A stretch of DNA of 59,087 nucleotides, the filler included, from Jimgerdemannia flammicorona (taxonomy: Eukaryota): NCBI GenBank assembly GCA_003990765.1. It is 3 parts of 3 records of this genome, joined end to end, with 100 filler letters (N's around TTAATTAATTAA, not from the genome) between each part and the next. Parts side by side here need not be neighbours in the genome. Positions count along the whole stretch, not along the records: positions 39,459 to 59,087 come from RBNJ01001893.1; 2 more parts are not named here. The stretch is one strand, 5' to 3'. Below are positions 10,980 through 59,074 of this stretch, one piece after another (position 1 is the first letter of the stretch; each line of letters starts with the position of its first letter). Under the pieces are notes generated by a model, which did no database searches, was not told the DNA's origin, and saw nothing but the letters and a program-made list of their open reading frames with translations. The translations under genes and the position numbers were made by a program.

Positions 10980-11013
10980 GAAATAAAATAAAATAAAATA
11001 AAATAAAATAAAA
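10980..11013. repeat. (AAAAT)n microsatellite
   Basis: About 6 tandem AAAAT units. Confidence 0.85.
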
Positions 11014-13656: not shown

Positions 13657-13708
<52 letters not shown>

Positions 13709-15067: not shown

Positions 15068-15887
15068 AGCGAGAAAAGAAAGAGAGGTCCAGATGTGCAT
15101 GTGACAAAGATGCCTATTTATAATTACTTGTTCTTTGTGGCGCGGTAACGTCACGCAAGGACTTGGGCAATATAAACAGAGCCGTAAGGACCCAATGGTG
15201 TGAACATTAACGAATTTGTATCAGTATTGCCATAATCAAGTCATTTCTGATGAATTATCTCGAATACCGGCAGCGGTTAGCCGCCCGTCCACCTCATCAA
15301 TATGGACACGTTACGTGTATATCTCGGTGTATACCATATCATCGAGGAACAGTATCTGCATCAAAGTACGCCTCTCTCAAGATGAAAAGTGTACTCTACG
15401 AGCTCAGTGGGAACGACCTATACTCCCCGATTGCAATAATAAAAAGAACTTCCGTAAGGAGAAGAGCTTAAAGACGTTATACCACGCAGGTAAACTGCAG
15501 TACATGAGTCCGGCCGGGACAGAAACACAGCCTATATCCCCCTGATCGGGCCCCCCGTAGGCCATAGGGGGGAGTGCTTGAGACATCATGTCACAGCGAA
15601 CTGCAGTACATGTAGTGCTCCGAATTTGGACTTTGATTCGAAGCAGGTCTTGACTCGATTCGTTACAAAAGCCCGATTCTGTATGAGAGATGCTTGAGAT
15701 GTCATGTCACACGGCTAACTGCAATACATGATCCGGTTGCAAACTGGCGAGTGGCGAAAAGTACAAAGAGAGACAAGCTACAATGGATGTCGAAGAATGC
15801 CTAGGGAATATAGTTTTATAAAGCGAGCGGTCGCGAACATGTCACAGCTCGATGAACTGTGAGGAGTCACAGCCAATCAGCCCCTGC

Positions 15888-19629: not shown

Positions 19630-19729
19630 NNNNNNNNNNNNNNNNNNNNNNNNNNNNNNNNNNNNNNNNNNNNTTAATTAATTAANNNNNNNNNNNNNNN
19701 NNNNNNNNNNNNNNNNNNNNNNNNNNNNN
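19630..19729. other. Artificial 100-bp spacer (N run with TTAATTAATTAA)
   Basis: All-frame stop linker embedded in Ns; the flanking segments are each 19,629 bp. Confidence 0.95.
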
Positions 19730-30056: not shown

Positions 30057-30085
30057 ACTTAGTGCCCATTGGCTGGTGATTTAAG

Positions 30086-33000
30086 ATGAATCCCTCACTT
30101 TTAAGCTGAAAAACAAATCACTACCACAATAACTACTCTGGCTACAAGAGTTATCTCTGTAAGAATTCAAGACAAGATAGAAATGTATCCCCCCACATTC
30201 TATAGATATACTACTGAAGAGTCAATCCTGACCTTCATTGAAGACTTTGAACAATTCGCTGCTATGTGAGTCCTCAATGTGGATGCACAATTGGCCCTTC
30301 TACCAGTCAGCCTCAGAGGACCTGCCAGAGATAAGTTCAATATAGCCACTATTGCTGATGCTGGTGTAGCCAGACTTGTCAACATGAAGACCTTTCTCAG
30401 AACTACATACTATACTGAAGAGATCAAGTAAGCTCTCAAGGATTAACTCAATACTATCTGCCAGAGACTCAGTAAAGATCCCAACTCATTTTATATCTGA
30501 ATCTGCCATCAGATTGTCTTGGCTGGCTGTGATGACTACCTCAAGAAATAAATAGCAGATTCAACCTTTCTCAAAGGAGTCCACTCTGAAATTGTCCTAG
30601 CAATCTGGTCTACCCCAGCTATACTGATCCTTGATCAAAAAGTGGTCTTTGCATAGAGATATTAGACTGCCAGACACCCTGCCAAACACTCAATAGAGAA
30701 AATAACTAGCATCAAAATGGAGCCATCAAAGCCAACTAGTATCATACCTATCACAGTTATAAACAGACAATCATCCCCACCTACCCCCAAGGCAGCCAAA
30801 GCTGACCCAGTAGAGGAACTTGCCAAGCAGTTTACTGAGATGACTGCACACCTTAGTGATATTGTTAGAGAAGTCTAAAGCACTAACAGGAGACCAGTAT
30901 AGAGATTTGTAGCTACTATAGAAGAATACAATATTACATACTTCAGATATAGAGAAGAAGGCTACTATGTAAAGAGTTGCATGATAAAAATAAGATATAG
31001 AGCCCAACTAAGTAATACTATCAGAATCAGAGAACAAATCAATATAGTAGTCATCAAGGAGATTGGTGACACTGATGATGAAGAATACTATAAGGAGCCC
31101 AAATTCTACCCTATTACTAAAGGTACCAGAACCCAGTCTAAGCCCTATGATAAGAAGAGCAACAGCAAGCCAGTTGGAAGACTGAAGAAGACTCCAGCTA
31201 TCACTATTCAAAGTAAGACCCAATCTGAGGAGATTGATCAAGATATGGAGTTAGATGAAGCTGCTCACCAAATCATTGAAGGTACTACTCCAGTCTCAGG
31301 CAAAAGTAATAGTAAGAAGGAACAGAAGCTGTGCAAGACCAAGATCTACTAGTATAATATCTACAAGGATCTTAAGGAACAGAAGATCAATGCTACTTTT
31401 GGACAGCTAGCTGAAGTCCCTGCCTTCAGATAGCAGTTGAGAGTAGGACTTGCAACCACTATCAAGAACCAAGAATACAAGATCATAGAAGCTCACAATA
31501 CATAAGAAGATGATCAAGAAGACTCAGGCAAAGAATCTGAAGACCAGTGCAGAACATCAGCCTATACCCCATATTAGATCAAAGATTGTATCTTTAATGC
31601 CATCATTGATACTGGTGCTGGAGGATGCCTTATGAGTAAGAAGACAATTGACCACTTAGGCTGGGACATTGAAGAGTCCACCAAGATGGTCTATGTTATA
31701 GCAGATAGTATATGAGCTACCCCCCTTGGCAAAATCCAAGAAGTCCCATCAAGATAAGAGGAGCTATCATCCCAGTAGATGTGATTGTTATAAGTGCCAC
31801 CAACTATGACACCCTCATTGGCAACTAATGACTTCATAAGGCCAAGGCCATCATTGACCTCAATGTCCAGAAGATATAGATCAACTATAGAGGAAGAAAG
31901 ATACAAGTCTCTATCAATGTCCACAAAGGAGTTCTACTAGATATGGAGGAAGGAGATGAAGAGGACACAGAAGTCTTCATATACTCAGTGAACAAGAATA
32001 AGAATAAGACACCCAAGCTCACAGATGAGCAGTGGTACAACAAGATTATCAATAGCTATGCTCCTCAAGAAAGATACCCCCATGATACTAGGATGTACTA
32101 CTCTGAACACCAGAATGACTGCTGGTTCTGTATCAGTGATGTCAGGAAAATCCACCAATAGAAGCATAAACAAGAAGCTGCTGAAGCAAAAAGGAAAGCT
32201 GAAGAAGATGACTAGTTCCCAGAGCTTCAAGCTGACAGTGATGATGAGGAGAAATAAGAACCAGACATCATCCTCAAGGTCAAGAAGTTTTACCCCAAAG
32301 CTAAGATCCTAGAATATAAGACTGAAAGAGTCATAAGAATGGACCTTACCAGTATTCAAGATACTACCCTTGAACCATAGACCACCACCCTACTTGGCAC
32401 TGGAATTGAAGTCAAGTTGCCAGAAAACTATACTAGATTTATCAAGATCAGGAGCAGTCTGGCCAAAAGCAAAATCTCAGTTGAAAGAGGAGTAATTAAT
32501 CCTGATTACACTGATGAGATCTTCCTCATAGTCAGGAATTACAACCCCACTACCCCATTTGAAGTCAAGAAGTATGACAGAATTGGCCAGATGCTGATCC
32601 ATGAAATCAAGAAGCCCAAGATCACCAAAGCCATCAAACTCATCAAGACTAAGAGAGGAGAACAAGGCTTTAGATCTACTGGAAGAGAAGCCTATACTAC
32701 CACTAAGATTACTGAACTTGAGCACAAAAAAGACAAGGACCAGAACAAATATATATATACCATTGGAGAAAACTTTCCTCTAGAAGAACAGCTTCTCAAG
32801 ATCCAGCATCAGAATGAAGGAGTACTTACTATAGACTTCAGAAATATCCACAATCAAGAACTCAAGTACTATTATGAAGTTGACACTGATGATACCAAGC
32901 CCATCTACCAGAAAGCCAGACCTATACCACCTGCCTACAGAGAATGGCTGTGAGCAGAACTCAAGGAAATAGAATAAGCTGAAATCATCAAGCAAGCTAT

Positions 33001-35734: not shown

Positions 35735-37266
35735 TATAACAGTGACCTCAGAATAATGATATCAGCACAAGAGACAGCCTTTCCTTATAAGCCACCAGAT
35801 CAGAGCACAAGAAGATCATATAGCATGACTCACTCAGACTACAAAATGAGCAATGATGACCAACTGTGAGTCATTGGGACCACAATATAAATATCTTAAG
35901 GAATATAAAAGAAGGATCAAGGAACTGCAGTAGCAGCAACTCAACAAGACTCACTAATCCTGAAATAGCTCAAAGACTTATTATAAACAAAATGCCTGCT
36001 GTCTGCCAAACCTTAAGATCAAGAAATCACCAAAGCCTCTCAGTCCAGAAAAGAATGTTCTAAGATATCTAAAGAGCCATAAGGACCTATACCACAAGGA
36101 CTCCTAGTGTCAACCTAGGTACTGATGAACCTTATCATTATATCCTCTACTGCTATAAAATGGAAACAAGAATCACCATTGCTATCAAATACCTCCAGAT
36201 ATGGTAAGAATACAAAATAAGAAACCTCCTCTGCTGAGAATTCCTTCAAGCCAGCCCTCAAGAGCTACAAGATACCACTTCTATGAATATATGTGAAATA
36301 AGGACAGCCAAGAAGATTTATCAGATTTTCAGATATATACTATGTCGATCTCCAACTTAGAGTATACCAGAGTCTCAGACTTCAGAGATCTGTCAGCCTA
36401 TTATATCAATGCACTAGAAGCCATGGTAGCTACAGAGGTCCAGTCTACTATCACCCTCAATAGTGATGAGGTAGAAGAGTTCTGGTATCCCATCTTCCAG
36501 GACAACTCAGATCAGTTCTTATAAGAATTGATCTCAGCATTCCAAGGCCCCAGCATCCAGGTTAGACCTCCCCAAGACCTCACATTTGTTCCTTATTTTG
36601 TAGAAGAGAATATCATAGATTAGAGAGTCTCCACTACCAAATGTAATGACATTATCAGTAATAATATCATCCTATGTGACATATGTGAAATGTATGACCT
36701 ACACAATGAGATGGATAAAATATTCATAAATCTCATCTCTTTCAGTGATGATGAGGATGAAGTCCCCATGGTCTTGAACATTCTGCTTTAAAGTTCTTAG
36801 TGATACCAAATTCTGCCAGCATTCTTTCTAATCTTATATGACTCAGAATTCTTCCAGCATCCTTTTTCTGTACCACTAAATTCTACCAGTACTCTGAACT
36901 TGTGCAACCATCTGTACCAATACTGAAATCTATACTGATAACTATAGTTTTCTGAATTTAAGTATTTTATTTGGTTATTAGAATTTATATTTAGCTTTAT
37001 AACTTAGCAACTATTGAATTATATTTTGTATAAATACCCCTCTTATTTCCTTTGAAATAAAGTCAGTTCTAGTTCACTTACTCTCAATTCCATATAAGCA
37101 ATCTAAGAGATAACAAGACAGTTTAAAGATAAGAAGTTTGAGGACTATAAGACTTTGAGAAAGTATTCTAATAAGAACTTACTTATAATAAACTTGAGTT
37201 AGTCTAAGAGATACACTTTGAAGAGAATCTGACATATTTGAAGGACTCAGCAACCACTATGTGATA
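35735..37266 (+). repeat. 3' LTR of B copy 2, containing an ORF3 copy at 35992-36791
   Basis: Follows the PPT and ends GTGA(T)A; direct repeat of 28508-30056. Confidence 0.9.
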
Positions 37267-39358
37267 ATATATAATTATATAAAAAAATAAATTAATTATT
37301 ACTTTTTTTTTAATAATTTAAATAATATACTACTATAAAAACTTAAATACTATACAATAAGTAGTTTTTATCTTCTTAAGTCTTTAAGAATTAATAAGAG
37401 CTATATTTATTATCCCTTAGGTTGTAAAGTAGACAAATATACCTGCAAAAATTATGATACTTATATATTTTAGCTAATATTTATTTTATTAAATTTTAAA
37501 TTATCGTTTTACTTATTATAACAATTATATTTTTTTTATTTATAATTAGAATATACCAAATTTGAAAATTATTTTTTTATATTTGTTATAATTTTTTTAT
37601 ATATAAATTATTTAGTAAAACTTTATTTTACCTTTTTTAGAAATTATAAAAATAATATATATTATTATAGATATTATGGTTGATTATATTTTAGCAGACA
37701 AATTTGCCTACATCTTTAAATTTGACTTCGTTTTTCTTACAGATCATGGGATAATAAACTATATAAGAACTAATAATAATATAATATTATTAATATAGAA
37801 AATCTAGCTATAAGCTATCTATTATATTGATAAAATTAAAATATTAACTCAATATAAACTATTAAGAAGTAAGTGAGAATTTAAATATTTTTTATATCTA
37901 AATCTATTATTATTTAGTTTTTATTAATTATATAGATATTATTTGGGATTAAGTAACTAAAGTAATCTTATAAAAAAAATTTATCTAAAAATAGTTCTTG
38001 TTATTTACTTTATATACATATATCAATAGTTTTAAATTTATCATAAAAGATAATCTATGCTCAGTAATATTAAATAGTTAAAAACTCTCAAAACTATAAT
38101 AAAAAGAGTTATAAGAATTAAAGCTCTTAATAATTCTGAGTTTGATCAACTTGAGATATAAATATGATATTTTTCTTATACTCTATTAGAAATAATACTT
38201 AGATAAGACCTATATTATAGGTACTTTGAAACTCAGTGCTTTCTCAAAAACTCAGAACTTAGGGCCAATAGTTACTATTAACTATCTATAAGATATTAAT
38301 TCTATTAGTATATTATTTTATTATATTTTGATAATAGTAAGTAGTTACTTTTTACCCATAAGCAATCTTTTTTTAAGAAACTATTATAGATAATTAGAAC
38401 TAGTCAATATTACCAACATTGTCAGTAATGGTTAAAAAATATCTTTACTCTAAATACTCCTCAGACTTAAGCTAATGAATCTAACAAAATTATTACTAAG
38501 TAGACCAAACCTCATACTAGCTAAGAGGAGTTTGATAAACTTAACAATAAAACTATCTAAAAAGTATTCAACATCTTCCTTATACTCAACAAAGAAGTCC
38601 TCTATACTACTGAACTTAAGGAGAAATTCAATAAGTTAATTAATAGCTACTTTTATAAGAAATATATATGAGAATCCATTGAGACTATAAGTAAATATTT
38701 TCTGAACCTCTTTCTTAATTATAAGTATATAACCTCCAAGGTATCAGAATTATAGCAAGATCATGAAGCTAAGTTAAACTGAAGTAACAGATCATGAAGC
38801 TAAGTTAACTTGAAGTTACAGAACACAAGACTTATAAAAATAGAATCTTACTAATTAAGATTGATAGCATATATATTAGATATATAGTATACCAAAATAG
38901 AGAACTATAAATAATAACTATAAATTCTCAAACATATATCTAGTTATAACTACTGAAGTTTATAACTATATCTATATATGAGAGAGTTGGAGGATGAGTA
39001 ACTGATATTGCAATGGGTGCTGGTAATTTGAGTTAGACTGGTGAGACATTGGCTCTTTATATTTGAGAAGAGTTAATAGTTGATATTAAGGGTGAGGGTG
39101 GCTAGATGGGAGTAGCTGATGATGGATATATTGAATGGGTGATAGAGGAGTAGGAGTACTGGTAGGGGGTATCAGTAATAATTGGTAGAGACAATCTATA
39201 AGAAGAGTGAAGAGAGGATTATGGTAGCAGAGAGGTTGGCAGTGTTTTAGAGAAATGGTGAGAGTGAGAGAGGTTTTCTGAGTGGGATTGGGTGAGGAGT
39301 ATATTTTAGTAGTATATTATAGACAGTTTGGTAATAAAGTGGAAGTCTATATAATTAT
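37267..39358. other. Very AT-rich, CpG-depleted relic sequence, not classifiable
   Basis: No long ORF. A 31-bp tandem duplication lies at 38758-38819, and the composition resembles heavily mutated repeats. Confidence 0.4.
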
Positions 39359-39458
39359 NNNNNNNNNNNNNNNNNNNNNNNNNNNNNNNNNNNNNNNNNN
39401 NNTTAATTAATTAANNNNNNNNNNNNNNNNNNNNNNNNNNNNNNNNNNNNNNNNNNNN
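39359..39458. other. Artificial 100-bp spacer (N run with TTAATTAATTAA)
   Basis: Same linker as at 19630-19729. Confidence 0.95.
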
Positions 39459-39911
39459 ATCAGTTCTGTCCAGACTCTGATCCCGAACCATATTAAAGTC
39501 CCCACCGAGAACATCTACCCCTTCCTCCAAGAGAGTACCCTCCTCCAGCAATCCCCTAATCCAAGCAATCCGCTCACCCCTAGCCGCAGGGCAGTAGCAA
39601 GAGCCCACCTTTACCGATTCCCAACCTGGCCGATGCCAATCTCCCCAGACCAAGCTATCACCCCAGCTCCTGATTCCCCCCAAGTCTCCTCTGCCTTTCC
39701 TCACCAGAATTGCTACCTTTCCAAACCACGCAGCAACCCCTCCCCACTCCTTAGTCCACTCCGCCCGATCATCTTCATCCTCACATCGAACATCCTGCAA
39801 TAAAAAGAGATCAGCCTCCAATCCCTTGAGCCAAGTAAAAATGTTCCAACACCGCCCAGATCCCCTTAGCCCATTCACATTCAAGGAAAAAATGTTGGTT
39901 GTACTGTTCAT
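39459..39911 (-). CDS. LINE ORF2 N-terminus, APE-type endonuclease (partial)
   Basis: IFSLNVNGL, DLFLLQDVR, VAILV, CYCP and GGDFN motifs. Confidence 0.9.
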
Positions 39912-39943
39912 AGAGAATAATGATATATAACAAAGCCCATCCT

Positions 39944-41961
39944 CTAAAAGTCGGCATCCAGCCTCTCCTGCGCCAAGTCCAAGTTACGTTCAGCAGCCAG
40001 ATCCCTCTTCCCAGCTTCCCGTGCCTCCAACTCCCCCAGAAGTTCAACCATCGCCCCATCCTCACGCTCCTCAAAATTCTCGCGATACTCCAGACATGCC
40101 GCCTGCCAGAGCTGTAGACCCCGACGTTCCGCCCAACAGTAAGCTGCCCTCTCAGCAGCGACCACCCCCAGGTCTGCCTTCCTCACCTCATCCACCTCAT
40201 ATCCCTCCTCCTCCAGCAATATCGTCAGAATCTCCACCTTCAGCGCCTCCACCATTCCATCCCCATGCAGGATCCTAGCCCAATGCTCCTCAGGCATCGC
40301 CCGCAGGTCCACCTCCCCCAATGCTTCTGCCGCGAGGTCATCCATCACCTTGCGTACCCACAGCAAGTTCCCCTCCTCTTTCCCTCCCGGAGTCCCCGGC
40401 CGCCCTGCATCCAACATTGTAGTATCAGCTCCTACACTAGCAGCCTCATCCCACTCCTCCTCAGGGACATCCCCCAGCTCATCCTCTCCAACCGCCACCA
40501 CTTGACCCCCTTGAGCCACATCAGGGACCCCAAAGCGCACCTGCTGGGCCCCCTGCATCCGTGTATCCTCCGGCCTTCCTCACATCCCCACTGGGCCCCT
40601 CCTGATAAGTGGGGGGGGGGTGGCCTCCAACTCCGGCTCCCACACTTCAAAGGTACCCTCAGCAAACGGGTCCTTGACCAGCCCCTTCCCAGCACCTGCC
40701 TCCTTCACCTCCACCTCCTCTCCTCCTTTACCAGCCCAGACACTGGCCTCAGCACCCCCAGACTCCTTGGCTTCACCCGACGGCTTCTTCCCCCCACCCG
40801 ATATATCCTCCAACAGCTCCTTCTGCCTCTTGCGACCCTGGATCCACTCCCACTTCTTCTTATCCATACGGATACGCCTCCCGCCCACAACCTCCAGATG
40901 TGTCGATTCCTCGAACAGTTTCCAAGCCTTCGCCCTCCTCTCTACAGCACCACCCAACTCCTCCAGCGCCTCCAACAAGTCCTCCTCCTCCTCTTCGCTC
41001 CCCTTCACCCTCGACACCTTGCAGATGACAGCCCCCCACATCAGCACCGAGGGCCAGTCACTCGGCTTCCCTGTGGCCTCTTTCCCTGCCAACCGAATCC
41101 TGACATCGACGTCGCCCGTCCTGATAGTCGTCCCCTCCCACAGTTGAAATCCAATGTCCACCACATCGCCATACTCAACCATCACCTCCTCCACCCTCCT
41201 CCTAGTCTCCTCCTTAGTCACCATGGGCACCCCCCTCACCAGAAGCTGCACGACCCTGGGATCCCACCTCAAGCACCTAACCATGGAGACCACTACCTCC
41301 CCAACCATCACTCCTGACTTCATGGCCTTGTCCAGTAGGCCCGCCTCCTCAAAGCCCACCTCCACCCCCTCCATGCCCTTCAAGAACTTCACCGAGGCTG
41401 CACCAGCCACCTGCTTCGAGATAAGCCCCAAGACCATCCTCGCCGTCACCGCCAAGCCCCGGAAGCACAAGGTAGCCACGAACTCCGAGATCGACTTTTT
41501 GAGCAACGGGGCTACCGCCAGTCCTGTTACACCATCAGCCAGGTCCCCCTTCCGCATCGGGAGCCCCTGCCCCCCCTGGCCATCAACTGTCACATCTCTT
41601 TTTTTTTCCAGATTCGCCGTCACGCCACCATCAGCAGTCCCACCACTACCTCCAGCCATCCCTCCACTTCCCCCACCTCCACCCAGCGAAGGTCCAGCTC
41701 CCCCAGTAGTTCCATCCTTCTGCTTCTCCTTCCCTCCTGCCAGTCCACCACGAGTGCCCAATGGCCAGCCCCCACCCCTCAACGTGTCCGCAAAGCTCCT
41801 CCCCTGCTTCCCTCCAGCCCCCCCACCAGTGCCACCTCCACTACCCGAGCCGCCCTGCCCACTCGAGCTACCGAAAGACCCCCCCTCTCGACAGTCTGCC
41901 AGTCGAAGGCCCCAGGTCCACCCGACCTAGTACGTGCGTCGGCTTGCTTGCTGGTTGACAT
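39944..41961 (-). pseudogene. LINE ORF1 (Gly-rich N-terminus, RRM-like core, acidic C-terminus), frameshifted
   Basis: ATG at 41961. Frameshifting deletion near 41885 relative to the copy at 1-204, and a second shift between ORFs 40580-41782 and 39944-40558. Confidence 0.75.
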
Positions 41962-42040
41962 TGCCTTAGTATCTTTTGCCAATAAATGCTTCGAAAGTAT
42001 GTTGAAAAGTGTGTGTAATGTGAATTGTAGCGGAGAAAGA

Positions 42041-43096
42041 TGCTGTATACTGCCTATATCCCTCAAGGAGCTCAACTTCTCCACCTCCTCCCATGCATCC
42101 AGACCTCCACTTCTCCCCCCTGCACTCCTCCCTCCATCAGTTCTGTCCAGATGCTGATCCCAAACCATATTAAAGTCCCTACCGAGAACATCGACCCCTT
42201 CCTCCAAGAGAATATCCTCCTCCAGCAGCTCCCTAATCCATGCAGTCCTCTCACCCCTACCTGTGGGGCAGTAGCAAGAGCCCACCTTCACCGATTCCCA
42301 CCCTGGCTGATGCCAATCTCCCCAGACCAAGTGATCACCCTAGCTCCTGATTCCCCCCAAGTCTCCCCTACCCTTCCTCACCAGAATCACCACTTTTCCA
42401 AACCAAGCAGTAGCCCCACCCCATTCCCTAGTCCACTCTACCCGATTGTCCTCATCCTCATACCGAACATCCTGTAGTAAAAAGAGATCAGCCTCCAATC
42501 CCTTGAGCCAAGTAAAAATGTTCTTATGCTGCCCAGAGCCCCTTAACCCATTCACATTCAAAGAGAAAATGTTGGTTGTACTATTCATAGAGAATAATGA
42601 TATATTGTGATTCCATCCTCTACAAGTCCACATTCGGCTCCTCCTGCACCAAGTCCAAGTCATGTTCAGTAGCTAGTTCCCTTTCCCCAGCTTCCTGTGC
42701 CTCCAACCCTCCCAGAAGTTCTACTATTGCCCCATCTTCTTGCTCCTCAAAGTCCTCATGTTACTCTAGACAGGCCTTCTGTCAGAGCTGCAAACCATGA
42801 CACTCTGCCCAACAGTAGGCTGCCCACTTATCAGTGACCACCACCAGCTCTGCCTTCCTCACCTCATCAACCTCATATTCCTCCTCCCCTAGGAAGATTA
42901 TAAGAATCTCCACCTTCAGTGCCTCTACCACTCCATCGCCATGCAGAATCCGCGCCCAATGCTCCTCAGGCATTACCTGCAGGTCCACTTCTCCCAATGC
43001 CTCTGCTGTGAGGTTATCCATCACCTTGCTCATCCACAACAAGTTCCCCACCTCCTTCCCTCCTGGAGTCCCCGGCTGCCCTGCATCCAACATCAT
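42041..43096 (-). mobile_element. Older, CpG-depleted fragment of the same LINE (ORF1 end + endonuclease)
   Basis: Colinear with 39459-40420. It is cut at 42040 by the younger LINE 5' end and at 43097 by the C1 LTR. Confidence 0.88.
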
Positions 43097-43881
43097 TGTA
43101 ATAACTCTCACTTCTACCCCTCTCTTATTCTTTGGATAATTAGGGAAGTGGACTATTACTTAGGGACTTAGTATACAATGTATACCAAGAAGCCTTCAGT
43201 TTGAGAAAGTGCTTGCTTATAAATAGTTGTAGTGGCAGTGCCTTCTGTTTCAAAGGTCTTTCTCTTGTGCCCTATTTCAAGGGTCTTATTCCTTGCTGTG
43301 CACAGACTGAATTCGCCTTGGAATTCAGGTTCAATGGGTTTACTTAAGTCTTTAGGGATTTATATACCAGTCTCAGTTCTGGCAGAAGTTAGCTAGGCTT
43401 CTGGAGTTTAGTCAGAAACACTAGAGTCACTTAGGTGTCATTATTAAGACTCAGGGGAATATGTGTGTGTGGGGGGGACTTGATTCTTGTATCAAGAACT
43501 GAACTAAAACTGCTTTATTTCAGATGGAAACTGGGGAGTATTTATACAAGTTGGTCTGTGATTTCTGACTAAGTATGAGTGACTAATTTGGTAACTATAA
43601 TGAGGTTTGTGATCATGACCTTTGTCAGGTGGTTTTTTGCAAAAAACATCTTTGTGATCAGGACCTCAATTACTAGGCAATGATCAGCTACTGTGGCAAC
43701 TGTTGCTGCAGTGCTGATTGTTGGAGATAAGCTGGATATCATTTTTCACGTCATTTTTGCATCGTTTGTCCATTTGTCATTTGTTATTCATATGTTGTGC
43801 TCGATCATTGATGACATCATTGCCAGTCATATGATCGCTTGTCACATCTTGTCTGTTTGCTCATTCATTCATTGTATTACA
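43097..43881 (-). repeat. 3' LTR of C copy 1 (785 bp)
   Basis: TGTAATA...TATTACA termini; PPT (minus AAGGAGGGAAGGA) adjacent. Confidence 0.92.
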
Positions 43882-43892: not shown

Positions 43893-44726
43893 TTAGAAAT
43901 CAATGTCCTTGTTGATTCAGAAATTGAGAACCAGAGGAGAATCCTCCTCAGGGTTGTTGTCATCTTCTTCAATAGTAGGGGAGATAGTGATTGCTGATGG
44001 CTTGCTGTCCAGGGTAGAGAAGTCAATGAGATCTGCAAATGGTTCTTACATGGGGATGGATGCTGGTGTAGGGGTTCTCCATCTGATACAGTTGGGGCCA
44101 TCCAAGTAGGGTTCTTGATCTTCATGTCTAGGAATATCCATTCGGATGGGCTGTCCTTCAAAGAGGTCAGATAGGCCTTAGAACCATTGGTCAGGGTTGT
44201 CATTCAGGAGGGGGCTCCAGTAGGGTTCACAGTCAGTAGACTTGAGGGTGATCCATGAGTTGGCTTCTTGGGCTATCTTGATCTCTAGTTCATCAACCTT
44301 GAAGAAAGAGAGGTTCTGGAAGTCCTTCAGTTGGACATAATTGAGGTTTGGGATTGTGAAGAGTGCATGGCACATGATTCGATGGACCTTCTTGGCAAGT
44401 CTTTGCTTGCTTCCATCCAGGTGGGTCCAATCAGAGACTTGATCCATGGGCAGGTCCTTTGCCCATTGGAGGAGTTGGTGGCCAATCTCGTATTCATGCC
44501 AGATCTCTAGGCAGCTGGTAGCAAGGTAGGCTCTTTCAATGACATTATGGCTGTTGAGGACATAGTGTCCTAGGTCCTGGCTGGAGAGGTTAAGGGCCTC
44601 TGAGTAGCAGTTCCTTCTTTGGATAGCAACCTGGATGTGTCCAAAGAGGCAGTCAACCTGGCTTGGGAGGGGCTGACTATGGCGGGCAGTTTGGCGGTGG
44701 GTAGCTTGGCTGTGGGTAGCGGGCAT
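43893..44726 (-). pseudogene. Accessory ORF3 of C copy 1 (~280 aa), unknown function
   Basis: ORF 44178-44726 plus its in-frame continuation (GLSDLFEG..NCIRWRTP..FADLIDFS..SPLVLNF); ends at the PPT. Confidence 0.82.
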
Positions 44727-45369
44727 TCTTGTCTTGTCTTTTCTTTGTGAGGAGAGGGAGATGAAGGTTACGGGGTATTCTTGCTTTGGGTATTTATACT
44801 TATTTCCCCCTCTGGTGTGATCTTCCTTTGGTCATGCTTTCTAGTGAAATGTGTGACCTATTGCTGTAAGTGGGACATGTACTGGTCATATGAGAAAATC
44901 CTGATTTTAACGATATCGTCACTCATAGTTGTGGTTACACAGGGTTAACAGGTCTTGGTCCACTTTTTTTTTGTCTGGTTGGCACATTTGTGAGGACTGG
45001 CCATCCTTGTCTAGGGCAAGGGCTCCTATTGTCATGGCTGGGGGTTTGAACCTCTCGGAAATAGACATTTCTTGTAATCCGAGGCAATTTCTAGTAATAA
45101 TATCTGTCACATGAATGGACTTAGACTGGTTTTGACATTGTCAGCTTTCCTAAGTTCCACATGAAGCATCCATAATCATCCAGCGGAGATGATACAGATG
45201 GTGTGAAATGGAGTTGTTCAAATGTATTTTGCTGTACTGTGCTAGACTGTTCTTTACTCGAGCATCTTCTTGTTGATTATCCATAGTATTCCTTTTTCTG
45301 CAATGTTCAGTATTATATGTTTCCAGATAAAATATATGATATCCTTCTGCTCACTATGTGCTCTAATTC

Positions 45370-48300
45370 TCAGAGCTGCAGGTCCTTCCTTTGTGGGGGA
45401 GTAAGTGTTTCCATATAGTCCTGGAGGGCTTCGCGTGCATTCTTCAGAGCTTCTTCTTTTTCCCAAGTGGCGTCATGGGTGGGGTAACCCTTCCACTTGA
45501 TCAGGAAAAACTGCTTGACTGTTTTGGGATATTTGCAGACCTTGTGGTCAAGTACTTCCTCAATTTCGAATTCCTCATGATTATTGATCCTAATTGGGGG
45601 CGGTGGTAGAACTGTATGCTTGGGGAATGGGTTCTCATAGTAGTCCACCAATTGGCTGATGTGGAATACTGGGTGTACTCGGATATTGTGAGGGAGTTGC
45701 AACTTGTAGTTGACTTTGCTGATCTTTTCCACAATCTTATATGGTCCAATTCTTCTAGCATGGAATTTTTTAGCTAATTGTTGTACTAGGGTGTCTGGAT
45801 AGAGGTGGTCTGTTCTAAGCATGACCATATCACCAATGTTATAGGAGACTTCTCTTCACTTCAAGTTTGCATAATTGGTTTGGTAGTCTTGTGCTTCTAT
45901 GATGGCATCTCTTGTTATTCACATAAGGTCAGAAATGGTCTCGGCCAGATCTTGGGCTGCTGGGACTGTTGATTTCGCAGTAGTGCTTGGAGTTCTTGAG
46001 TGTTGATCATGGTTCAGGAAGAATGGAGTCTTCTTTTTGGAGGTTTACTGACTGTTATTGTAGGCAAACTCGGCATGGACTATATACTTGTCCCAATCAT
46101 TTTGCTTGTAACAGCAGAAGATGCTAAGCATCTGTTTGAGAGTCCTGTTGGTTTGCTTGGTTTGACTGTCAGTCTGAGGATGGTAGGCAGTAGAGAACTT
46201 CAGCTTGGTTCCATTGAGAGAGAAAAATGCCTTCCAGAAGTTGCTTGTGACCTTGGCATCTCGGTCAGATACAATAGTGCTAGGCATGCCATGTAGCCTG
46301 AATACTTGGTTGAGGAAAATCTCAGCAATCTCTGGTGCTATAGCGGTGGTCTTAGTGGGTGCAAAATGAGCTTGTTTACTTAGGCAATCTACGAATACCA
46401 CAATGGCATCCCATTCTGCCTTGGTCTTGGGGAGTTGGACAATGAAGTCTATTGCAATCTGATCCCAGTTGTGGCTCAGGATAGGCAAGGGTTACAGGAG
46501 TCCTGCTGGTAGTTTGTTACCACTTTTGAACCTTTGGCATATCTCACATGAGGCCACAAAGTCTTTGATATCCTTGGTCATCTTTGGCCAGTAGAACTCT
46601 CTTGAGAGGAGGCTGTAAGTCTTTTCAAAACCAAAGTGTCCTGCTGCAGGAGTATCATGGAGTTCCTGCATGATCTTGAGTTGCAGAGAATCATTGTTGG
46701 ATACAACCACTCTGTTATGGTCCCGGTAGATAAGTCCATCATGGTAAGTGAATCTCTTGGCCATTTGCCTCATGGGTTCTGGGACCTTGGCCTCTGGGTC
46801 TTGGCAGAATTGAAGGATGTTTGTCAGGGGGCTGTCCTGCTGATAGCCATCCTTGATCATCTGGATAAGGTCTCCAATTACCTCAATCATGAAGACAAGT
46901 TCATCTTCCATGTACCTAGAGAAACCATCAGCCACACAGTTGGTTTTGCCTGGGATATACTTGATTTCCATATCAAAGTTGGCAATGATTTCCATCCAGC
47001 AGGCTTGTCTGTGGGTCAGCATGGGCTTTGTGTGAATATACCACAGGGCATGGTGATCAGTATAGGCTACAAATGGTTGTCCTAAGAGGAAATAGCACCA
47101 TTCCTGGAGTGCAGTAACAATGGCCAGGAGTTCCTTCTCGTGGGTGGTATACTGGGTCTCAGCTGGCTTGAGCTTTTGGGAAAGATAGGCCACTGGGCAG
47201 TCTTCTTGGCTGAGCACTGCCCCAATAGCAATGTCAGAGGCATCTGTGGTCAGGGTGAATAACCTGGTAGAGTCAGGTGCAATTAGCACTGAGGCCTCAG
47301 TAAGGAGTCTCTTGAGATGGTCCATAGCCAGAGTGCATTCGGAGGTCCATTCAGTCTTAATGTTTACTCCTTTGTGTGCCAGATTGGTTAATGGGGCTGC
47401 AATGGCAGAGTATCCTTGGATAAACCTTCGGTAGTAACCGGCAATACTCAGAAAGCACTAGAGTAGCTTGAGGGTAGTGGGGATGGGAATATCCTTAAGG
47501 GCTGATACCTTTCGGGGGTCTACATTGATACCTTCAGCAGATATGATATGTCCTAGGTACTCAATCTGGTCCTGAAAGAACTTGCATTTGCTCATCTTGG
47601 CATAGAGCTGGTGTTCTCACAGAAGGGTCAGTACTTGTCTGAGGTGGGTGTAGTGTAGCTCTACTGTCTCACTGTAGATTAGTATATCATCAATATACAC
47701 AAGGACACAGATGTTGAGGAGTGGTCCAAAGATGTCATTCATCAGATACTGGAATGTTGCTGGTATATTGATCAAACCAAAAGGCATGACTCAGAACTGG
47801 TAGTGTCCAAACAATGTTCGAAAAGCTGTCTTCTCAATATCCTTCTCATCAATGAGAATCTGGTGATAGCCATTTTGCAAGTCTAGTAGGGAAAAGGTCT
47901 GGGCCTTGAAGATTTGGTGTAGCAACTCATCAATCCTAGGCAAGGCATACCAGTTCTTGATGGTGATCTTGTTGAGAGCTCTGTAGTCAATACACATTCG
48001 CAGAGAGCCATCCTTCTTCTTGACAAATAGAATGGGGGCTCCAAATGGAGAGCGGCTGGGTTCAATATATCCTTGGGCCAGTAATTTGGTCAATTGATCC
48101 TTGAGGGTCTAGAGCTCAGATTGGGCCAGTTGATAGATACTCTTATATGGGGGTTCAGATGCTGGGATAAGATCAATTCTATGTTGGATTTGGTGCTTGG
48201 GTGGAAGTTCTTGGGGGTTTTGGAATACATCTTGGAATTCTTCAAATAGTTCTTGAGCTTCTGTTGGAATTGGGCTACTTGTAGCTTCAGTGACTTCTTG

Positions 48301-51300
48301 TACTGTATAGATGAAGTTGGTGTTTCCCTTTTTTCGAGAGAGTCTCTTCATTTGAATGGCAGAGAGGATTTCGATTCTCTGGTGGTTGGTACCTTCCTGG
48401 GGTGTCAGAGTGATCTTTCTGCCTTCATGGGTCAGGTTAACCTCATTGGTTCTCCAGTTGATGTCTGGGTTGTGCTGGGTCAACCAGGCTTTTCCTAGGA
48501 TAATGTCCTGTCCTGGGAGGTCTACAATGCTGAAGTCCAACTTCTCTTGATATTTGTCAATCTTGAGCAAGAGATCTTCGCAGATCTTGGTCAATGGTGC
48601 AGTCTTTCCATCACCAAAGGTAACACTTCTTTTCTCAGTGGTGGGTCTGCTTCGGGCTCCAATACTCTTGGCAGTCTTGGTGCTGATATAGTTTCCAGTA
48701 GCACTACTATCCAGCAAGACATTGACATTCTGTCTATGGACTTGGCCTATGAACTTGATGCAGCTGTCCTCTTTCTTGATGGTATTGAGCTCTTCATCTT
48801 CATTGTTGTCCCAATTGTCAGTCTTCTCGAAGTCAGTTTCTCCCCATCCTTCACAAGGAGGGTTGTCTTGTTTGGGTTCCTCAGTCTGTTGGGCTTGGCG
48901 TATCTCAGATTGAATTTTGAAGACTTTGGAGAGGCATGCATGGCATTCACCAACATGTTCCATGTAGTACATTCGAATGGAATGAGGGTATCATCCACAT
49001 GGTGCATAACTATCTGCAATTCTCTTATACCAGTTTTCATCATCTTCCTTCATGGTAGTGATCTTCTGACTGGGAGGTTTGTTGGTTAATCCAAACCCTT
49101 TCTTGCCACGATCTGTCTAGGAGAGCTCGGGGACTTCTTCAATGATTGCTTGGACAATCCTTTGGCCTATTTTGACTTCAAATGATGTGTCTCCAAAATT
49201 TCGCAAGATGACACAGATTTTGCCAGTAAATCCTTGATCAACTACTCCTCCTCCTAGCCCAATGTTGAACTCTTTGGCTAGGCTGCTTCGCTCAGCAAGG
49301 CAGATGTATGTTCCTTTGGGAGCTTGTATTGCAATTCCTGTTCACACTGTAGCATTGGTACTTGGTGGGATGGTGAGGTCTTGGCTGCTGTAGAGGTCAT
49401 AACTAGCATCAATTGGGTGGGCCTTAGTAGGGATGGTAGCCTTATACCATATCTTCTGTACTTTGATGATATTCTCAGGGTTCTTCTTTCCTGGATCTTC
49501 TCCAATAACGGTAATGTTCTGGTTACTGGGTTCACCTGATCTGTTCTTCTTCTCAGGGCATCTGAATGAGATGTGTCCTGCCTTCTTACAGATGAAGCAT
49601 AATCCCTTTTCGCGAAGCTGCTTCTTTTCATCCTCAGTGGGAGGTCTGGGTCCTCTGGGATTTTGCTGGTTCCTTTGATCATTCCTTTGATCATATATTT
49701 GATCATTCCTTTGGTCATTACTTCTGGTAGGATTTCTCCTATCTTAGTTATCCTTCTTGTATTTTTAGTTTCATGGAGCTTATGTAGCAAGGATTTCATG
49801 GGCTCTTCTTTGTACTTGAGCAAAACACCGACAATCTTGGGGAAGACCTTGTTCCTTGATCTTCTGGGTGAGCCAGTCTGGTAGGGCTGCAAAAAGATGG
49901 TTGGCTCTGGTACCATTGATGGCCAAATTGTTCTCCTGATAGGTGAGTCCAACAGTTTTGAGATAGGCATCCATTCTAGTTGCAAAGGTCTCTAGATCTT
50001 CTTCGCCATTCTTGTGGAACTTCATCTGGGACAGTTTGTTCCAAATTTCTTGTATGTAGGCCGCATTTCAGAATTTGGTCAGTAGAAAGGCCTTGAGTCC
50101 TGGACCTGCTTCATAGTCATCCCAACCTGGTCTATTGTTGGCAGGTACTTGTCCATTGACTTGAGAGCAGTTTTCCCAGGTTACTGAGTATTGTTCCAAG
50201 GTTTGCCAGAATTCGGCTACTGTTCCAGTGAAAAATGTGACTACTGTTTTCACTTGTACTGCTGATATAGCAAACAGCTGTTGAAGGGTGCTGTTCTGGT
50301 TGTTGGTGAGCATTCCTATAGGCACTCAGTTGTCATTCCATTGGTTTACTCAGTAGCCTGTGTCAAATGCATTGATGAAGTTTTCAATGTCACTATTTTT
50401 TCCACTGAATGGTGGGATTCACAGAGTCTTGGTTGGTTTGTTCTATTCAGCAATCTGTCCTACTATCCCTGCTAGTGCTGCTAGCTGGATAGTCAGTGCT
50501 GCAATGTTGATATCTACCATTGTGTTGACTATTGGTGGTGGGTCTGTTGGGGTAGATTCTCCTGAAGATTGTTCTTTTTGGTGGGGTTGTGGTGCTGTAT
50601 GACTTGGGGTTACTTGATTCCCAGATATCAAGTCAAAGAGTCCTGTAAGAGAGGGTAAACCAAACCTCTATATAGGTGGCTGAGTTGGTTCTGGGGTCTG
50701 ATCTTCTTGACCTGTGGTTTCCTGATAACCTCCTAGGCCTACTGTTCCTTGTTGGCTATTGTCAGACTAGTAACCTATAGAGTCTTTGTCTGACTCCCTT
50801 CCCTGATGAGATAGTGCATCCTTGTACTAACTAGGTCCTTCAGAGAGGATATCAGTCTCTGGCTAGGTAGATGGGCCTGCTTCTTGTTCAGCAGTAGGGG
50901 ATGGTTGGCCTGCTTGCTCGTTCTCGTACCTGGTTATGGCAGAGGCATAGTATACAACTAACCTGTAGTAGAGGGAGGTCTTGGTAGGGGTATGATGATA
51001 TCTGTCAGAGACAATCCACTCAGCAGCTGCTTCTCTTGCAGTAGGGGGTGTGATATAGTATAAAAAATCCTAGGTAGCTGCAGCAGTAGATTCAGGGGTC
51101 CTAGTGGTTCCAATATGTCCTTGGAGGAGTTTTTAGAACCTACAGCAGCTGACAATATTCCTAAGTCCTGGGTGGTATGTCCTAAAGACCTGGTATAGAT
51201 CCTTGTAAGCCTGGTCAATTACAAGCTGGCGGGTCCCTGTATCTGTGGTTTCCTGGTACCACCTGGTCCTAATGGCAAGGGCTTCTCTGGCTCTGGTTTG

Positions 51301-51390: not shown

Positions 51391-51410
51391 GTAATCTGCT
51401 GCTACCAAGT

Positions 51411-51792
51411 TGTAATAACTTTCACTTCTACCCCTCTCTTATCCTTTGGATAATTAGGGAAGTGGACTATTACTTAGGAACTTAGTATACAATGTGTACC
51501 AAGAATCCTTCAGTTTGAGGAAGTACTTGCTTATAAGTAGTTATAGCAGCAGTGTCTTCTATTTCAAAGGTCTTTCTCTTGTGCCCTATTTCAAGAGTCT
51601 TGTTCCTTGTTGTGCACAGACTGAATTCACCTTGGAATTCAGGTTTAATGGGTTTACTTAAGTCTTTGGGGATTTATATACTGGTCTCAGTTCTGGCAGA
51701 AGTTAGCTAGGCTTCTGGAGTTTAGTCAGAAACACTAGAGTCACTTAGGTATCATTACTAAGACTCAGGGGAATATGTGTGTGTGGGGGGGA
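51411..51792 (-). repeat. Partial 5' LTR of C copy 1, interrupted by C copy 2
   Basis: Matches 43097-43478, then restarts as a new LTR at 51793. Confidence 0.88.
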
Positions 51793-52590
51793 TATAATAA
51801 CTCTCACTTCTACCCCTCTCTTATCCTTTGGATAATTAGGGAAGTAGACTATTACTTAGAGACTTAGTACACAATGTGTACCAAGAAGCCTTCAGTTTGA
51901 GGAAGCATTCGCTTATAAGTAGTTGTAGCAGCAGTGTCTTATCTTTCAAAGGTCTTTCTCTTGTGCCCTATTTTGAAGGTCTTATTCCTTGCTGTACACA
52001 GTCTGAATTCGCCTTGGAATTCAGGTTCAATGGGGTTACTTAAGTCTTTGGGGATTTATATACCAGTCTTAGTTCTGGCAGTAGTTAGCTAGGCTTCTGA
52101 AGTTTAGTCAGAAACACTAGAGTTACTTAGGTGTCATTACTAAGACTCAGGGGAATGTGTGTGTGTGGGGGAGACTTGATTCTTGTATCAAGGACTGAAC
52201 TAAAACTGCTTTATTTCGGATGGAAACTGGGGGGTATTTATACAAGTTGGTCCACGATTTCTGACTAAGTATGAGTGACTAATTTGGTAACTATAATGAG
52301 GTTTGTGATCGCAACCTTTGTCAGGTGGTTTTTTTGCAAAAAACTCTTTGTGATCAGGACCTCAATTACTAGGCAATGATCAGCAGCTATGGAAACTGTT
52401 GCTGTGGTGCCGATTGTCAGGGATAAGCTAAATATCGTTTTTCGCATTGTTCGTTTGCATTGTTCATCACTCGTTATTCATATGTCGCGCTCAATCATAT
52501 GATGACATCATCGCTGGGTCACGTGATCATTCTTGATCACTCGTCGCATCCAATCTGTTCACTTGTTTGTTCTATTACATCCTTCCCCCC

Positions 52591-53422: not shown

Positions 53423-54066
53423 TCTTGACTTGTCTTTTCTTTGTGAGGAGAGGGGGATGAGAGTTGTGGGGTATTCTTGCCTAGGGTATTTATACTTATT
53501 CCCCTCTCTGGTGTGACCTTCCTTTGGTCACGCTTTCTGGCAAAATGTGTGACCTGTTGCTGTAAGCAGGGCATGTGCTGGTCATATGAGAAAATTCTGA
53601 TTTCAAAGATCTCGTCACTCATAGTTGTGGTTACACAGGGTTAACAGATCTTGGTCCACTTTTTTTTTGTCTGGTTGGTGCATTTGCGAGGACTGGCCAT
53701 CCTTGTCTAGGGTGAGGGCTCCCATTGTCATAGCTGGGGGTTCGAACCTCTTGGAAATAGACTTTTCTTGTAATCCAAGACAATTCCTAGTAACAATATC
53801 TGTCACATGGATGGACTTAGACTGGTTTCGACATTATCAGCTTTCCTAAGTTCCATATGAAGTATCCACCATCATCCAGCAGAGATGATACAGATGGCAT
53901 AAAATGGAGTTGTTTAAATGTGTTTTGCTATACTATGCTAGATTGTTCTTTTGCTCAGGTATCTTCTTGTTGGTTATCCATAGTGTTCCTTTTTCTGCAA
54001 TATTCAGTATTATATGTTGTCAGATAAAATATGTGGTATCCTTCTGCTCACTATGTGCTCTAATAC

Positions 54067-57000: not shown

Positions 57001-59074
57001 TGTACAGATGAAGTAGGTGTTTCCCTTTTTTCGAGAGAGTCTCTTCATTTGAATGGCAGAGATAATTTCGATTCCTTGGTAGTTGGTACCTTCCTGGGGT
57101 GTCAGGGTGATCTTTCTGCCTTCATGAATCAGGTTAACCTCATTGGTTCTCCAGTTGATGTCTGGGTTGTGCTGGGTCAACCAGGCTTTTCCTAAGATAA
57201 TATCTTATCCTGGGAGGTCTACAATGCTGAAGTCCAACTTCTCTTGATATTTGCCAATTTTGAGTAAAAGATCTTTGCAAATCTTGGTCAATGGTGCAGT
57301 CTTTCCATCACTGAAGATAACACTTCTTTTCTCAGTGGTGGGTCTACTTCGGGCTCCAATCCTCTTGGCAGTCTTGGTGCTGATGTAGTTTCCAGTAGCA
57401 CTACTATCAAGCAAGACATTGACATTCTGTCTGTGGACTTGACCTGTGAACTTGATGCAACTGTCCTCCTTCTTGATGGTATTGAGCTCTTCATCTTCAT
57501 TGTTGTTGTCCCAATTGCTGTCAGTCTCCTCGAAGTCAGTTTCTCCCCATCCTTCACAAGGAGGGTTGTCTTGTTTGGGATCCTCAGTCTGTTGAGCTTG
57601 ATGTTTCTCAGATTGAATTTTGAAAACTTTAGAGAGGCATGCATGGCATTCACCAACATGTTCCATGTAGTACATTCGAATGGAATCAGGGCATCATCCA
57701 CATGGTGCATAACCATCTGCAATTCTCTTATACTAGTTTTCATCATCTTCCTTCATAGTAGTGACCTTTTGACTGGGAGGTTTGTTGGTAGATCCAAACC
57801 CTTTCTTGCCATGGTCTGTCTGGGAGAGCTCGGGGACTTCTTCAATAGTGAGATCTTGATGGATTTCTTCAATAATTGCTTTAGCAATTTTTTGGCCTGT
57901 TTTGACTTCAAATGATGTGACTCCAAAAATTTCGCAAAATGACACATATTTCACTAGTAAATCCTTGGTCAACTACTCCTCCTCCTAGCCCAATGTTGAA
58001 CTCTTTGGCTAGGCTACTTCATTCAGCAAGGTGAATGTATGTACCTTTGGGAGCTTGCATTGCAATTCCTGTTTATACTGTAGCATTGATACTTGGTGGA
58101 ATAGTGAGATCTTGGCTACTGTAGAGGTCATATCTAGCATTGGTTGGGTGGGCCTTAGTGGGGATGGTAGCCTTGTACCATATCTTCTGTACTTTGATGA
58201 CATTCTTGGGGTTCTTCTTCCCTGGGCCTTCTCCAATGACAGTAATGTTCTGATTACTGGGGTTGCCTGTTCTGTTTCTCTTCTCAGGGCATCTGACTGA
58301 GATGTGTCCTGCTTTCTTGCAGATGAAGCACAATCCCTTTTTGTGGAGCTGTTTCTTTTCATCCTCAGTGAGAGGTCTGGGTCCTCTGGGGTTTCGTTGG
58401 TTCCTTTAATCATTCCTTTGATCATATCTTTGGTCATTTCTTTGGTCATTTCTCCTGGTAGGATTCCTCCTATCTTGGTTATCCTTCTTGTGTTCTTGAT
58501 TTCATGGAGCTTGTGCAGCAAGGATTTTGCGGGCTCTTCTTTGTACTTGGGCAAAGCACCATGAGTAGTGGGGGCATCCTTGGGGAAGACCTTGTTCCTT
58601 GATCTTCTGGGTGAGCCAGTCTTGTAGGGCTGCAAAAAGGTGGTTGGCTCTGGTACCATTGATGGCCAAATTGTTTTCCTGATAGGTAAGTCCAACAGTT
58701 TTGAGATAGGTATCCATTCTGATGGCAAAGGTCTCTAGATCCTCCTCGCCATTCTTATGGAACTTCATTTGGGATAGTTTGTTCCGAGTTTTTTGTATGT
58801 AGGCTTCATTCTGGAATTTGGTCAGTAGCAAGGCCTTGAGTTCTGGGCCTGCTTCATGGTCATTCCAACCTGGTCTATTGTTGGTAGAAGCTTGTCCAAT
58901 GATTTGAGGGCGGGCTTCCCAAGTTACTGGGTGTTGTTCCAAGGTTCGCCAGAATTCGGCTACTGTTCCAGTGAAGAATGTGGCTACTGTTTCTACTTGT
59001 GCTGCTAATGTGGCAAACAGCTGTTGGAGGGTGCTATGGTTGTTGGTGAGCATTCCTATAGGCACTCAGTTGTC
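54067..59074 (-). pseudogene. gag(part)-dUTPase-CHCC module-protease-RT-RNase H-integrase-chromodomain of C copy 2
   Basis: The ORF-track fragments 54067-59065 carry all the Ty3 pol motifs, separated by transition-derived stops. Confidence 0.92.

Follow-up and report, generated by a model that had tools for sequence, protein, structure and literature searches.

We analyzed a stretch of 59,087 nucleotides, filler included, from Jimgerdemannia flammicorona (GenBank assembly GCA_003990765.1). This stretch, hereafter the window, consists of three parts of three genome records joined end to end, and all coordinates count along it. By a combination of self-BLAST, repeat search and tblastn, six decayed long terminal repeat (LTR) elements of four lineages were recognized: A, D, two copies of B (B1 and B2) and two copies of C (C1 and C2). 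Each of the six carries a dUTPase domain inside a Ty3/gypsy polyprotein, and the position of the domain relative to the aspartic protease (PR) differs between lineages.

Six dUTPase domains in two polyprotein positions

All 295 stop-to-stop open reading frames (ORFs) of the window that are at least 60 aa long and free of N were scanned with Pfam-A, and the limits of the domains were set by peptide look-up. The dUTPase family PF00692 was found in nine of these ORFs, all at the six places named in the initial annotation of this DNA, whose limits agree with ours to about 12 nt; no dUTPase match appeared elsewhere among the 295. Against a cut-off of 22 bits, the scores were 43-61 bits in A, D, B1, B2 and C1 and 29 bits in C2, and the family score threshold (gathering score) was exceeded in all six copies. 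The domains, with the ORFs that gave the matches and their flanking PR and reverse transcriptase (RT), are as follows.

1373-1792, minus: dUTPase domain of A, with three in-frame stops, a decayed zinc knuckle before it and PR (695-1348) directly after it; ORF 1487-2020 (E 1.6e-16)
6454-7033, minus: dUTPase domain of D, with one stop, split by a 170-bp insertion; ORFs 6385-6729 (E 1.5e-12) and 6773-7021 (E 3.7e-11)
24237-24650, minus: dUTPase domain of B1, with three stops, between PR (25035-25466) and RT (23242-23975); ORF 24345-24551 (E 1.4e-11)
32282-32695, plus: dUTPase domain of B2, with one stop, in frame with an upstream Cys/His motif and the downstream RT start; ORF 32381-32950 (E 2.5e-15)
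49072-49464, minus: dUTPase domain of C1, with two in-frame stops and a nine-codon deletion relative to C2 and to the database relative P0011; ORFs 49120-49341 (E 4.2e-12) and 49345-49743 (E 8e-4)
57775-58195, minus: dUTPase domain of C2, with two stops and one frameshift near 57925; ORFs 57736-57972 (E 8e-7) and 58076-58405 (E 1.8e-3)

All six domains are genuine dUTPases within Ty3/gypsy polyproteins, and they occupy two positions. The order is nucleocapsid (NC)-dUTPase-PR in A, C and D and PR-dUTPase-RT in B, so that the two polyprotein positions proposed earlier were recovered for all four families by Pfam, tblastn and reading of the frames. In C1, gag, a CCHC knuckle, dUTPase, the Cys/His motif, PR, RT, RNase H, integrase (IN) and a chromodomain follow one another on a single reading frame. 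Features of C1 in this order are listed here.

45373-50667, minus: gag-pol of C1, one reading frame with 20 in-frame stops and the chromodomain at its end
49552-49602, minus: CCHC zinc knuckle (zf-CCHC, E 1e-3), residues 48-64 of ORF 49345-49743
48424-48777, minus: aspartic protease (RVP_2, E 1.1e-8), residues 72-189 of ORF 48112-48990

The knuckle and the start of the dUTPase thus share one ORF in C1 (49345-49743). The same holds in C2, where ORF 58076-58405 contains zf-CCHC (E 1.3e-3) together with the dUTPase start, in agreement with the in-frame fusion claimed for this copy by the initial annotation. In A, positions 1960 to 305 are colinear in one high-scoring segment pair with residues 1-566 of the database protein P0003, which has the order NC-dUTPase-PR-RT. 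D shows a decayed knuckle followed by dUTPase and PR. In B, a decayed knuckle is followed by PR, the Cys/His motif, dUTPase and RT, and in B2 a single frame runs from the Cys/His motif through the dUTPase to the RT start. The dUTPase is therefore in frame with NC, PR and RT, and its order is constant within each lineage.

The elements that carry these domains are delimited as follows.

1 to about 3994, minus: A element, cut by the window edge inside RT
3995-5505 and 9077-10846, minus: 1.5-kb repeats enclosing the D element, whose internal part holds gag, dUTPase and PR
19735-21174, minus: 3' LTR of B1, with its partner at 26992-28447 (repeat search, self-BLAST)
28508-30057 and 35735-37267, plus: LTRs of B2 (repeat search, self-BLAST)
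43096-43478, minus: 3' LTR of C1, with its partner at 51410-51792, 94% identical
51795-52174, minus: 3' LTR of C2, the element itself continuing past the window end

The four families of the initial annotation stand as four clearly diverged lineages by their RT and PR identities. The RTs of A and C are 53-54% identical, and that of B is 33-37% identical to those of A or C. Neither RT nor IN was found in the internal part of D by tblastn. The D copy, having no RT, could not be placed by this protein; its PR is 26-28% identical to that of C. The Ty3/gypsy chromovirus layout, with LTRs, gag-PR-RT-RNase H-IN and a C-terminal chromodomain, is complete in C1 and C2. B1 and B2 have LTRs, PR, RT, RNase H and IN; in these copies Pfam gave no chromodomain match at E 0.01 or better, and the chromodomain was detected only in family C.

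Adjoining the dUTPase in three of the lineages is a zinc-ribbon-like Cys/His motif of about 45 aa, which reads WYxxIxxGYxPxGRCPHxxRMYCxEHxxxCxxC in the stop-free P0011. In C, D, P0011 and P0052 it follows the dUTPase, in B it stands between PR and dUTPase, and it was not found in A, P0003, P0121 or P0033. No Pfam family matched it, the best being the zinc-ribbon family DUF1451 at E 0.05, and its AlphaFold confidence was only 55-76. The motif is so far undescribed. Its copies in the window are at these positions.

48901-49047, minus: Cys/His motif of C1
57604-57750, minus: Cys/His motif of C2
6301-6435, minus: Cys/His motif of D
24771-24899, minus: Cys/His motif of B1
32021-32158, plus: Cys/His motif of B2

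Database relatives, conserved motifs and decay

A profile built from the six domains was searched against 1.84 billion representative proteins and gave 40309 matches at E 0.001 or better, and the domain contexts were obtained by Pfam on 34 longer matches and by direct reading of six more. P-numbers and L001 are our labels for database proteins and for one metagenome contig. The dUTPase precedes PR in P0003, P0072, P0105, P0121 and P0052, follows PR or precedes RT in P0033, P0100 and P0051, and follows the chromodomain in P0044. Stop-free partners of the same order were thus available for A (P0121, dUTPase-PR) and B (P0051, dUTPase-RT); those of C are P0011 and P0155, and D resembles P0052 (NC-dUTPase-motif-PR) and contig L001. 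P0011, a stop-free protein of 485 aa with the order gag-NC-dUTPase-Cys/His motif, is 84-92% identical to C (84% to the C1 domain), and its dUTPase scores 114 bits in Pfam. The dUTPases of A, B and D are only 42-45% identical to their relatives. A word-based protein search returned two matches among 206 candidates with the C1 domain as query and five matches with P0011. A metagenome scan with the Cys/His motif gave 161 pattern matches and one confirmed locus, L001, a decayed D-like piece. For the N-terminal part of P0011, the ESM Atlas yielded Gag-like leads below 0.9, without a taxon. Small shares in two metatranscriptomes, one from root and one from soil, were rejected as evidence of habitat.

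The same search returned the domain in other retroelement settings. The Copia-type polyproteins P0002 and P0118 carry a dUTPase, one of them being named as from a diatom. In the caulimovirus-like polyprotein P0110 it precedes the coat domain, and P0129 has it beside a Pol_BBD domain.

The blocks AGYDL, RSS/GLA, GVIDxDY/FxG, GDRIAQ and RGxxGFGST are recognizable in every family of the window. We take these to be the five motifs of homotrimeric dUTPases, with the Asp of motif 3 presumably catalytic. This Asp is kept in five of the six copies and is Asn in B2. P0011, P0052, P0051 and P0121 retain all five motifs, apart from a His in motif 5 of P0011. When the six-domain profile was compared with dUTPases of solved structure, the shrimp (136 bits), human (134), Arabidopsis (127) and yeast (119) enzymes scored far above those of feline immunodeficiency virus (FIV, 79), equine infectious anemia virus (EIAV, 75), M. 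tuberculosis (64) and E. coli (60). Judged by sequence, the window domains are far closer to eukaryotic cellular dUTPases than to retroviral ones. The AlphaFold model of P0052 has a predicted local distance difference test score (pLDDT) of 84-95 over the domain (residues 60-170). Its best Foldseek match was the Entamoeba dUTPase 3lqw (E 5.3e-15, template modeling (TM) score 0.90), and human dUTPase matched with a TM score of 0.84-0.92. The model supports a predicted jelly-roll dUTPase fold for the relative P0052 only.

All six window copies are dead pseudogenes. The observed/expected ratio of CpG is 0.01-0.18 in the elements versus 1.05 in the unique stretch 11000-19600, and transitions exceed transversions 6 to 50 fold among the differences between copies, many of which lie in a CpA/TpG context. 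This decay looks like a methylation-driven process, or one resembling repeat-induced point mutation, confined to repeats. C1 and C2 have six in-frame stops in common, five of them TGA in C1 and three of them Arg in the stop-free P0011, and each copy also carries private stops of all three kinds. Since three of the shared stops are Arg in P0011 and CpG is nearly gone, parallel CGA-to-TGA decay accounts for the shared stops without recourse to an unusual genetic code. TGA as a sense codon was accordingly rejected on the private stops, the Arg residues of P0011 and the loss of CpG. The lesions in conserved dUTPase blocks are not the same in copies of one family, which suggests that the families originally possessed the full set of motifs.

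The insertion in the D dUTPase spans 170 bp (6667-6836, counting one of two 14-bp copies; 6667-6850 with the duplication) and has a 14-bp direct duplication, aaaagaactctcag, at its flanks. The window contains a single copy, with a higher G+C than its surroundings. The insertion is missing in the D-like contig L001. An intron was ruled out, since the insertion carries the 14-bp duplication and is missing in L001. A tRNA scan found no tRNA, and the 170 bp had no tRNA match.

Several other features of the window lie in or next to these elements. An ORF downstream of the C chromodomain, ORF3 (44181-44831, minus), is stop-free over 217 aa and continues beyond a stop; no Pfam family matched it, and the C1 ORF3 had no credible match in the ESM Atlas. 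Homologues with 33-41% aa identity occur in all four 1.45-kb LTRs of family B, so that the same gene is internal in C and LTR-borne in B.

20386-20925: ORF3 homologue in a B LTR
27661-28127: ORF3 homologue in a B LTR
28763-29296: ORF3 homologue in a B LTR
35968-36518: ORF3 homologue in a B LTR

The flanking repeats of D (4844-5141 and 10179-10482) match 44931-45233 and 53627-53929 over about 300 bp at 75-78% nucleotide identity. The C part of this match lies directly downstream of the C pol; the D and C proteins are only 26-50% identical. The internal part of A begins right after the lower repeat of D (3995), and A and D may therefore share this repeat as an LTR. Only 2 bp separate the 5' LTR of C1 from the 3' LTR of C2 (51792-51795), and the 5' LTRs of B1 and B2 face each other 60 bp apart (28447/28508). 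The repeat at 39459-43093 has a G+C content of 56-60%, is bounded by 959-bp direct terminal repeats and carries long ORFs on both strands; 42343-42672 (minus) within it gave a weak Exo_endo_phos match. Window positions 1-283 are 88% identical to 41774-42039. Runs of N occupy 19630-19729 and 39359-39458, and two pairs of 44-base N runs stand directly before the B1 LTR and the repeat 39459-43093.

Number of placements and origins of the domain

The relationships of the domains were assessed by two dUTPase trees. The quick tree held 72 rows and used every second of 76 short single-domain matches. The careful tree held 45 rows and 137 columns; its 18 unnamed rows were chosen after the best-match lists had been seen, and P0157 was dropped for its long branch. 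The labelled outgroups (plant, ichthyosporean, cercozoan and adenoviral dUTPases and one fungal dUTPase) came from a search with the database protein P0040. The domain is short, and the decayed window rows share a mutational bias and may attract each other in such trees. The careful tree paired A with P0121 at 96/72, B with P0051 at 97/84 and C with P0011 at 100/99. In both trees the four families formed an unresolved polytomy, and with the deep branches unresolved no donor can be named. In the approximately unbiased (AU) test, constraining the four families together was not rejected on the 72-row quick tree (p 0.688), and the constrained tree exceeded the quick free tree by 18.4 log-likelihood units. 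Grouping the four families with their relatives was not rejected either (p 0.268), nor was grouping all 18 Ty3-linked dUTPases, at a cost of 36.9 log-likelihood units (p-AU 0.081).

A comparison of dUTPase and RT trees had been suggested by the initial annotation. The tree of the seven rows with RT separated B from A, C, P0003 and P0033 at 100/100, whereas the dUTPase tree of the same rows was unresolved and thus shows neither supported agreement nor supported conflict with RT.

We consider it very probable that the window holds dUTPases of homotrimeric type, akin to eukaryotic cellular enzymes, that were built into Gag-Pol of four diverged Ty3/gypsy lineages, served as polyprotein-borne enzymes against uracil, and owe their places to old, inherited placements in at least two events. 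Stop-free proteins exist with each architecture, which makes the architectures older than the window copies, and identities of 42-45% between A, B or D and their relatives suggest that the placements are old and were vertically inherited within each lineage, rather than recent local events. The earlier suggestion that the capture or exchange took place in this host is not supported, the dUTPase of each family having a database counterpart of the same architecture.

Several observations weigh against this conclusion. No intact copy exists among the six in the window, and because every copy is broken, dUTPase activity is judged by homology alone. No copy is free of lesions in the conserved blocks: motif 2 is lost in A, GFC replaces GDR in D and in L001, and His replaces Arg in motif 5 of C2 and P0011. 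Motif 3 of family C reads GVVDQGFTG in place of the usual GVIDxDYRG, a variant that we take to be tolerated, as presumably in mycobacterial and retroviral enzymes. In the careful tree, D stands on a branch of 2.31 beside the stand-alone P0092 and a fungal dUTPase at 97/81, and not beside P0052.

From the two orders we infer at least two placement events, and for the ultimate origin the data fit separate captures, a single capture with later rearrangement, or exchange among elements alike. The initial annotation had proposed repeated capture or exchange; the two positions speak for it, and the polytomy and the AU tests leave it indistinguishable from one ancient capture with rearrangement. That the two architectures, perhaps each family, took up cellular dUTPase mRNA separately has in our judgment somewhat less than an even chance. 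Besides the two different positions, the identities favor it: the window dUTPases are 42-51% identical to stand-alone dUTPases versus 24-41% between families, although the decay of the window copies depresses all identities among them, and the stand-alone comparison proteins could be fragments or viral. Likewise, the dUTPases of P0033, P0072, P0044 and P0105 share 60-66% identity with short stand-alone dUTPases but only 45-56% with those of other retroelements. P0033 has the order PR-dUTPase-RT but RT and PR of the same kind as A, C and P0003 (RT 43-55% identical to these versus 34-35% to B). The 36.9 log-likelihood units that the 18-domain constraint costs point the same way, as does the same proposal in the accessible part of PMC2864245, but no supported branch divides the four families, and the AU test did not reject a single clade at p 0.688 or 0.268.

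Those two AU results, and the 18.4 units gained by the 72-row constrained tree, count in favor of a single capture. A capture in an ancestral chromovirus, vertical descent and a swap of PR and dUTPase in the B lineage would also agree with RT and dUTPase trees that show no supported conflict; we nevertheless regard this history as rather unlikely. RSS in motif 2 and the Thr of D(Y/F)TG are common to B, C, D and P0003 (the latter position is Ile in window D and Thr in L001), but many of the sampled stand-alone dUTPases have these residues too, and the shared decay bias and long branches may draw the window rows together. B, C and D all have the Cys/His motif, some 45 aa long, beside the dUTPase, but it lies after the domain in C and D and before it in B, and A is without it. 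An intermediate architecture was not seen among the window elements and their relatives.

The Cys/His motif is also an argument for exchange, in which template switching of co-packaged RNAs would have carried a block of dUTPase and motif from one Ty3 lineage into an unrelated one. Identity of the motif between B and the C-type P0011 is 47-48%, whereas B and C are 34-37% identical in RT and 23% in the PR match, and B and D have a long stretch in common around motif 3, SVEGGVID..Y.GKI. Moreover, the ORF3 homologues in the B LTRs and the 300 bp shared at 75-78% by the D repeats and C mean that these elements do share parts. However, constraint alone can conserve short motifs, the dUTPase tree has no supported branch of B with D or of B with C, and the order of motif and dUTPase differs between lineages, with which a simple cassette transfer is not compatible; we think such exchange improbable. 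A broader proposal, to which we give an equally low probability, treats the dUTPase and the Cys/His motif as a module that was captured once and then swapped with the protease, or recombined between B and C/D, and that every Ty3 lineage keeps because host dUTP is high where the elements replicate. If true, it would be one of the few documented instances in which domains were reshuffled within pol. That host dUTPase gene or nested pseudogene fragments came to lie by chance inside retrotransposons was ruled out and has practically no probability. The eukaryotic cellular type of the domain is its only support, and against it, every family holds the domain in frame and colinear with NC, PR and RT, the members of C1/C2 and of B1/B2 have it at the same place, and the architecture recurs in independent database proteins.

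Proposed function and comparison with known systems

By analogy with retroviral systems, live elements would have made the dUTPase as part of Gag-Pol, and the enzyme may have assembled as a trimer inside the virus-like particle. It would hydrolyze dUTP to dUMP and pyrophosphate. RT being blind to dUTP versus dTTP, removal of dUTP would lead it to put less uracil into the cDNA, which would leave the host uracil-DNA glycosylase less to attack and so spare the cDNA. The effect would be expected to be greatest in cells with a high dUTP/dTTP ratio; for retroviruses, the accessible text of PMC4531489 describes the role of the dUTPase and its importance where the cellular dUTPase is low. An element-encoded dUTPase marks lineages whose reverse transcription meets uracil. 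Retention of the domain by all gypsy lineages of a genome, if it holds, would hint at a pressure at the level of the host, such as high dUTP in the cells concerned or uracil-directed restriction. For annotation, such dUTPase matches are to be read as retrotransposon parts and not as host genes.

The order of A, C and D mirrors the betaretroviral NC-dUTPase-PR, as the initial annotation had pointed out: the betaretroviruses Mason-Pfizer monkey virus (M-PMV) and mouse mammary tumor virus (MMTV) have this order, with a presumed role in excluding uracil from cDNA, in the part of PMC4531489 available. Only the order of domains is alike, since the window pol is Ty3/gypsy with a chromodomain. The window profile gave 119-136 bits on cellular enzymes versus 75-79 on FIV and EIAV, and no M-PMV chain was among the 60 matches listed.

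For family B, the order PR-dUTPase-RT is described, in the accessible sections of the respective papers, for the bdelloid rotifer elements Juno, Vesta and TelKA (PMC5408684) and for giant planarian gypsy elements (PMC6431247), which B resembles in this respect. Juno has an extra zinc knuckle after the dUTPase (PMC5408684, same sections), which recalls the Cys/His motif of the window. As described there, the rotifer and planarian elements differ from those of the window in their animal hosts, in being without a chromodomain and in having env-like or enzymatic ORF3s. A fungal case is Tmt1 of Tuber, reportedly described by Riccioni et al. in 2008, a Ty3/gypsy element with the dUTPase between PR and RT as summarized in PMC6431247 and PMC5408684. 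By that description its order is that of family B, and the 1.45-kb LTRs of B hold the ORF3 homologue.

Further close parallels come from fungi. Novikova and Blinov reportedly described dUTPase-bearing Metaviridae of Phanerochaete chrysosporium in 2008. In the accessible part of Novikova et al. 2010 (PMC2864245), the PosPlaTy3 families of Postia placenta have the dUTPase at the Pol N-terminus, at the Pol C-terminus or between PR and RT; the authors suggest that it was acquired independently from different sources, and they cite cases from Phanerochaete and Tuber. This bears out the statement of the initial annotation that some fungal Ty3 elements carry a dUTPase. Like the window, PosPlaTy3 as presented there combines chromodomain Ty3/gypsy elements of one genome with a dUTPase at differing Pol positions. 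Compared by description, its Pol N-terminus corresponds to the position in A, C and D and its gap between PR and RT to that in B; the third position, the Pol C-terminus, is absent from the window and present in the database protein P0044. Several positions per fungal genome and independent acquisition are therefore already in print, and the window adds members only. With the pattern known in fungi, rotifers and planarians, all copies dead and 137 columns too few to decide between one capture and several, the Jimgerdemannia elements are new examples of this pattern and not a new principle, joining PosPlaTy3 and Tmt1 among the fungal Ty3/gypsy elements that carry a dUTPase in Pol.

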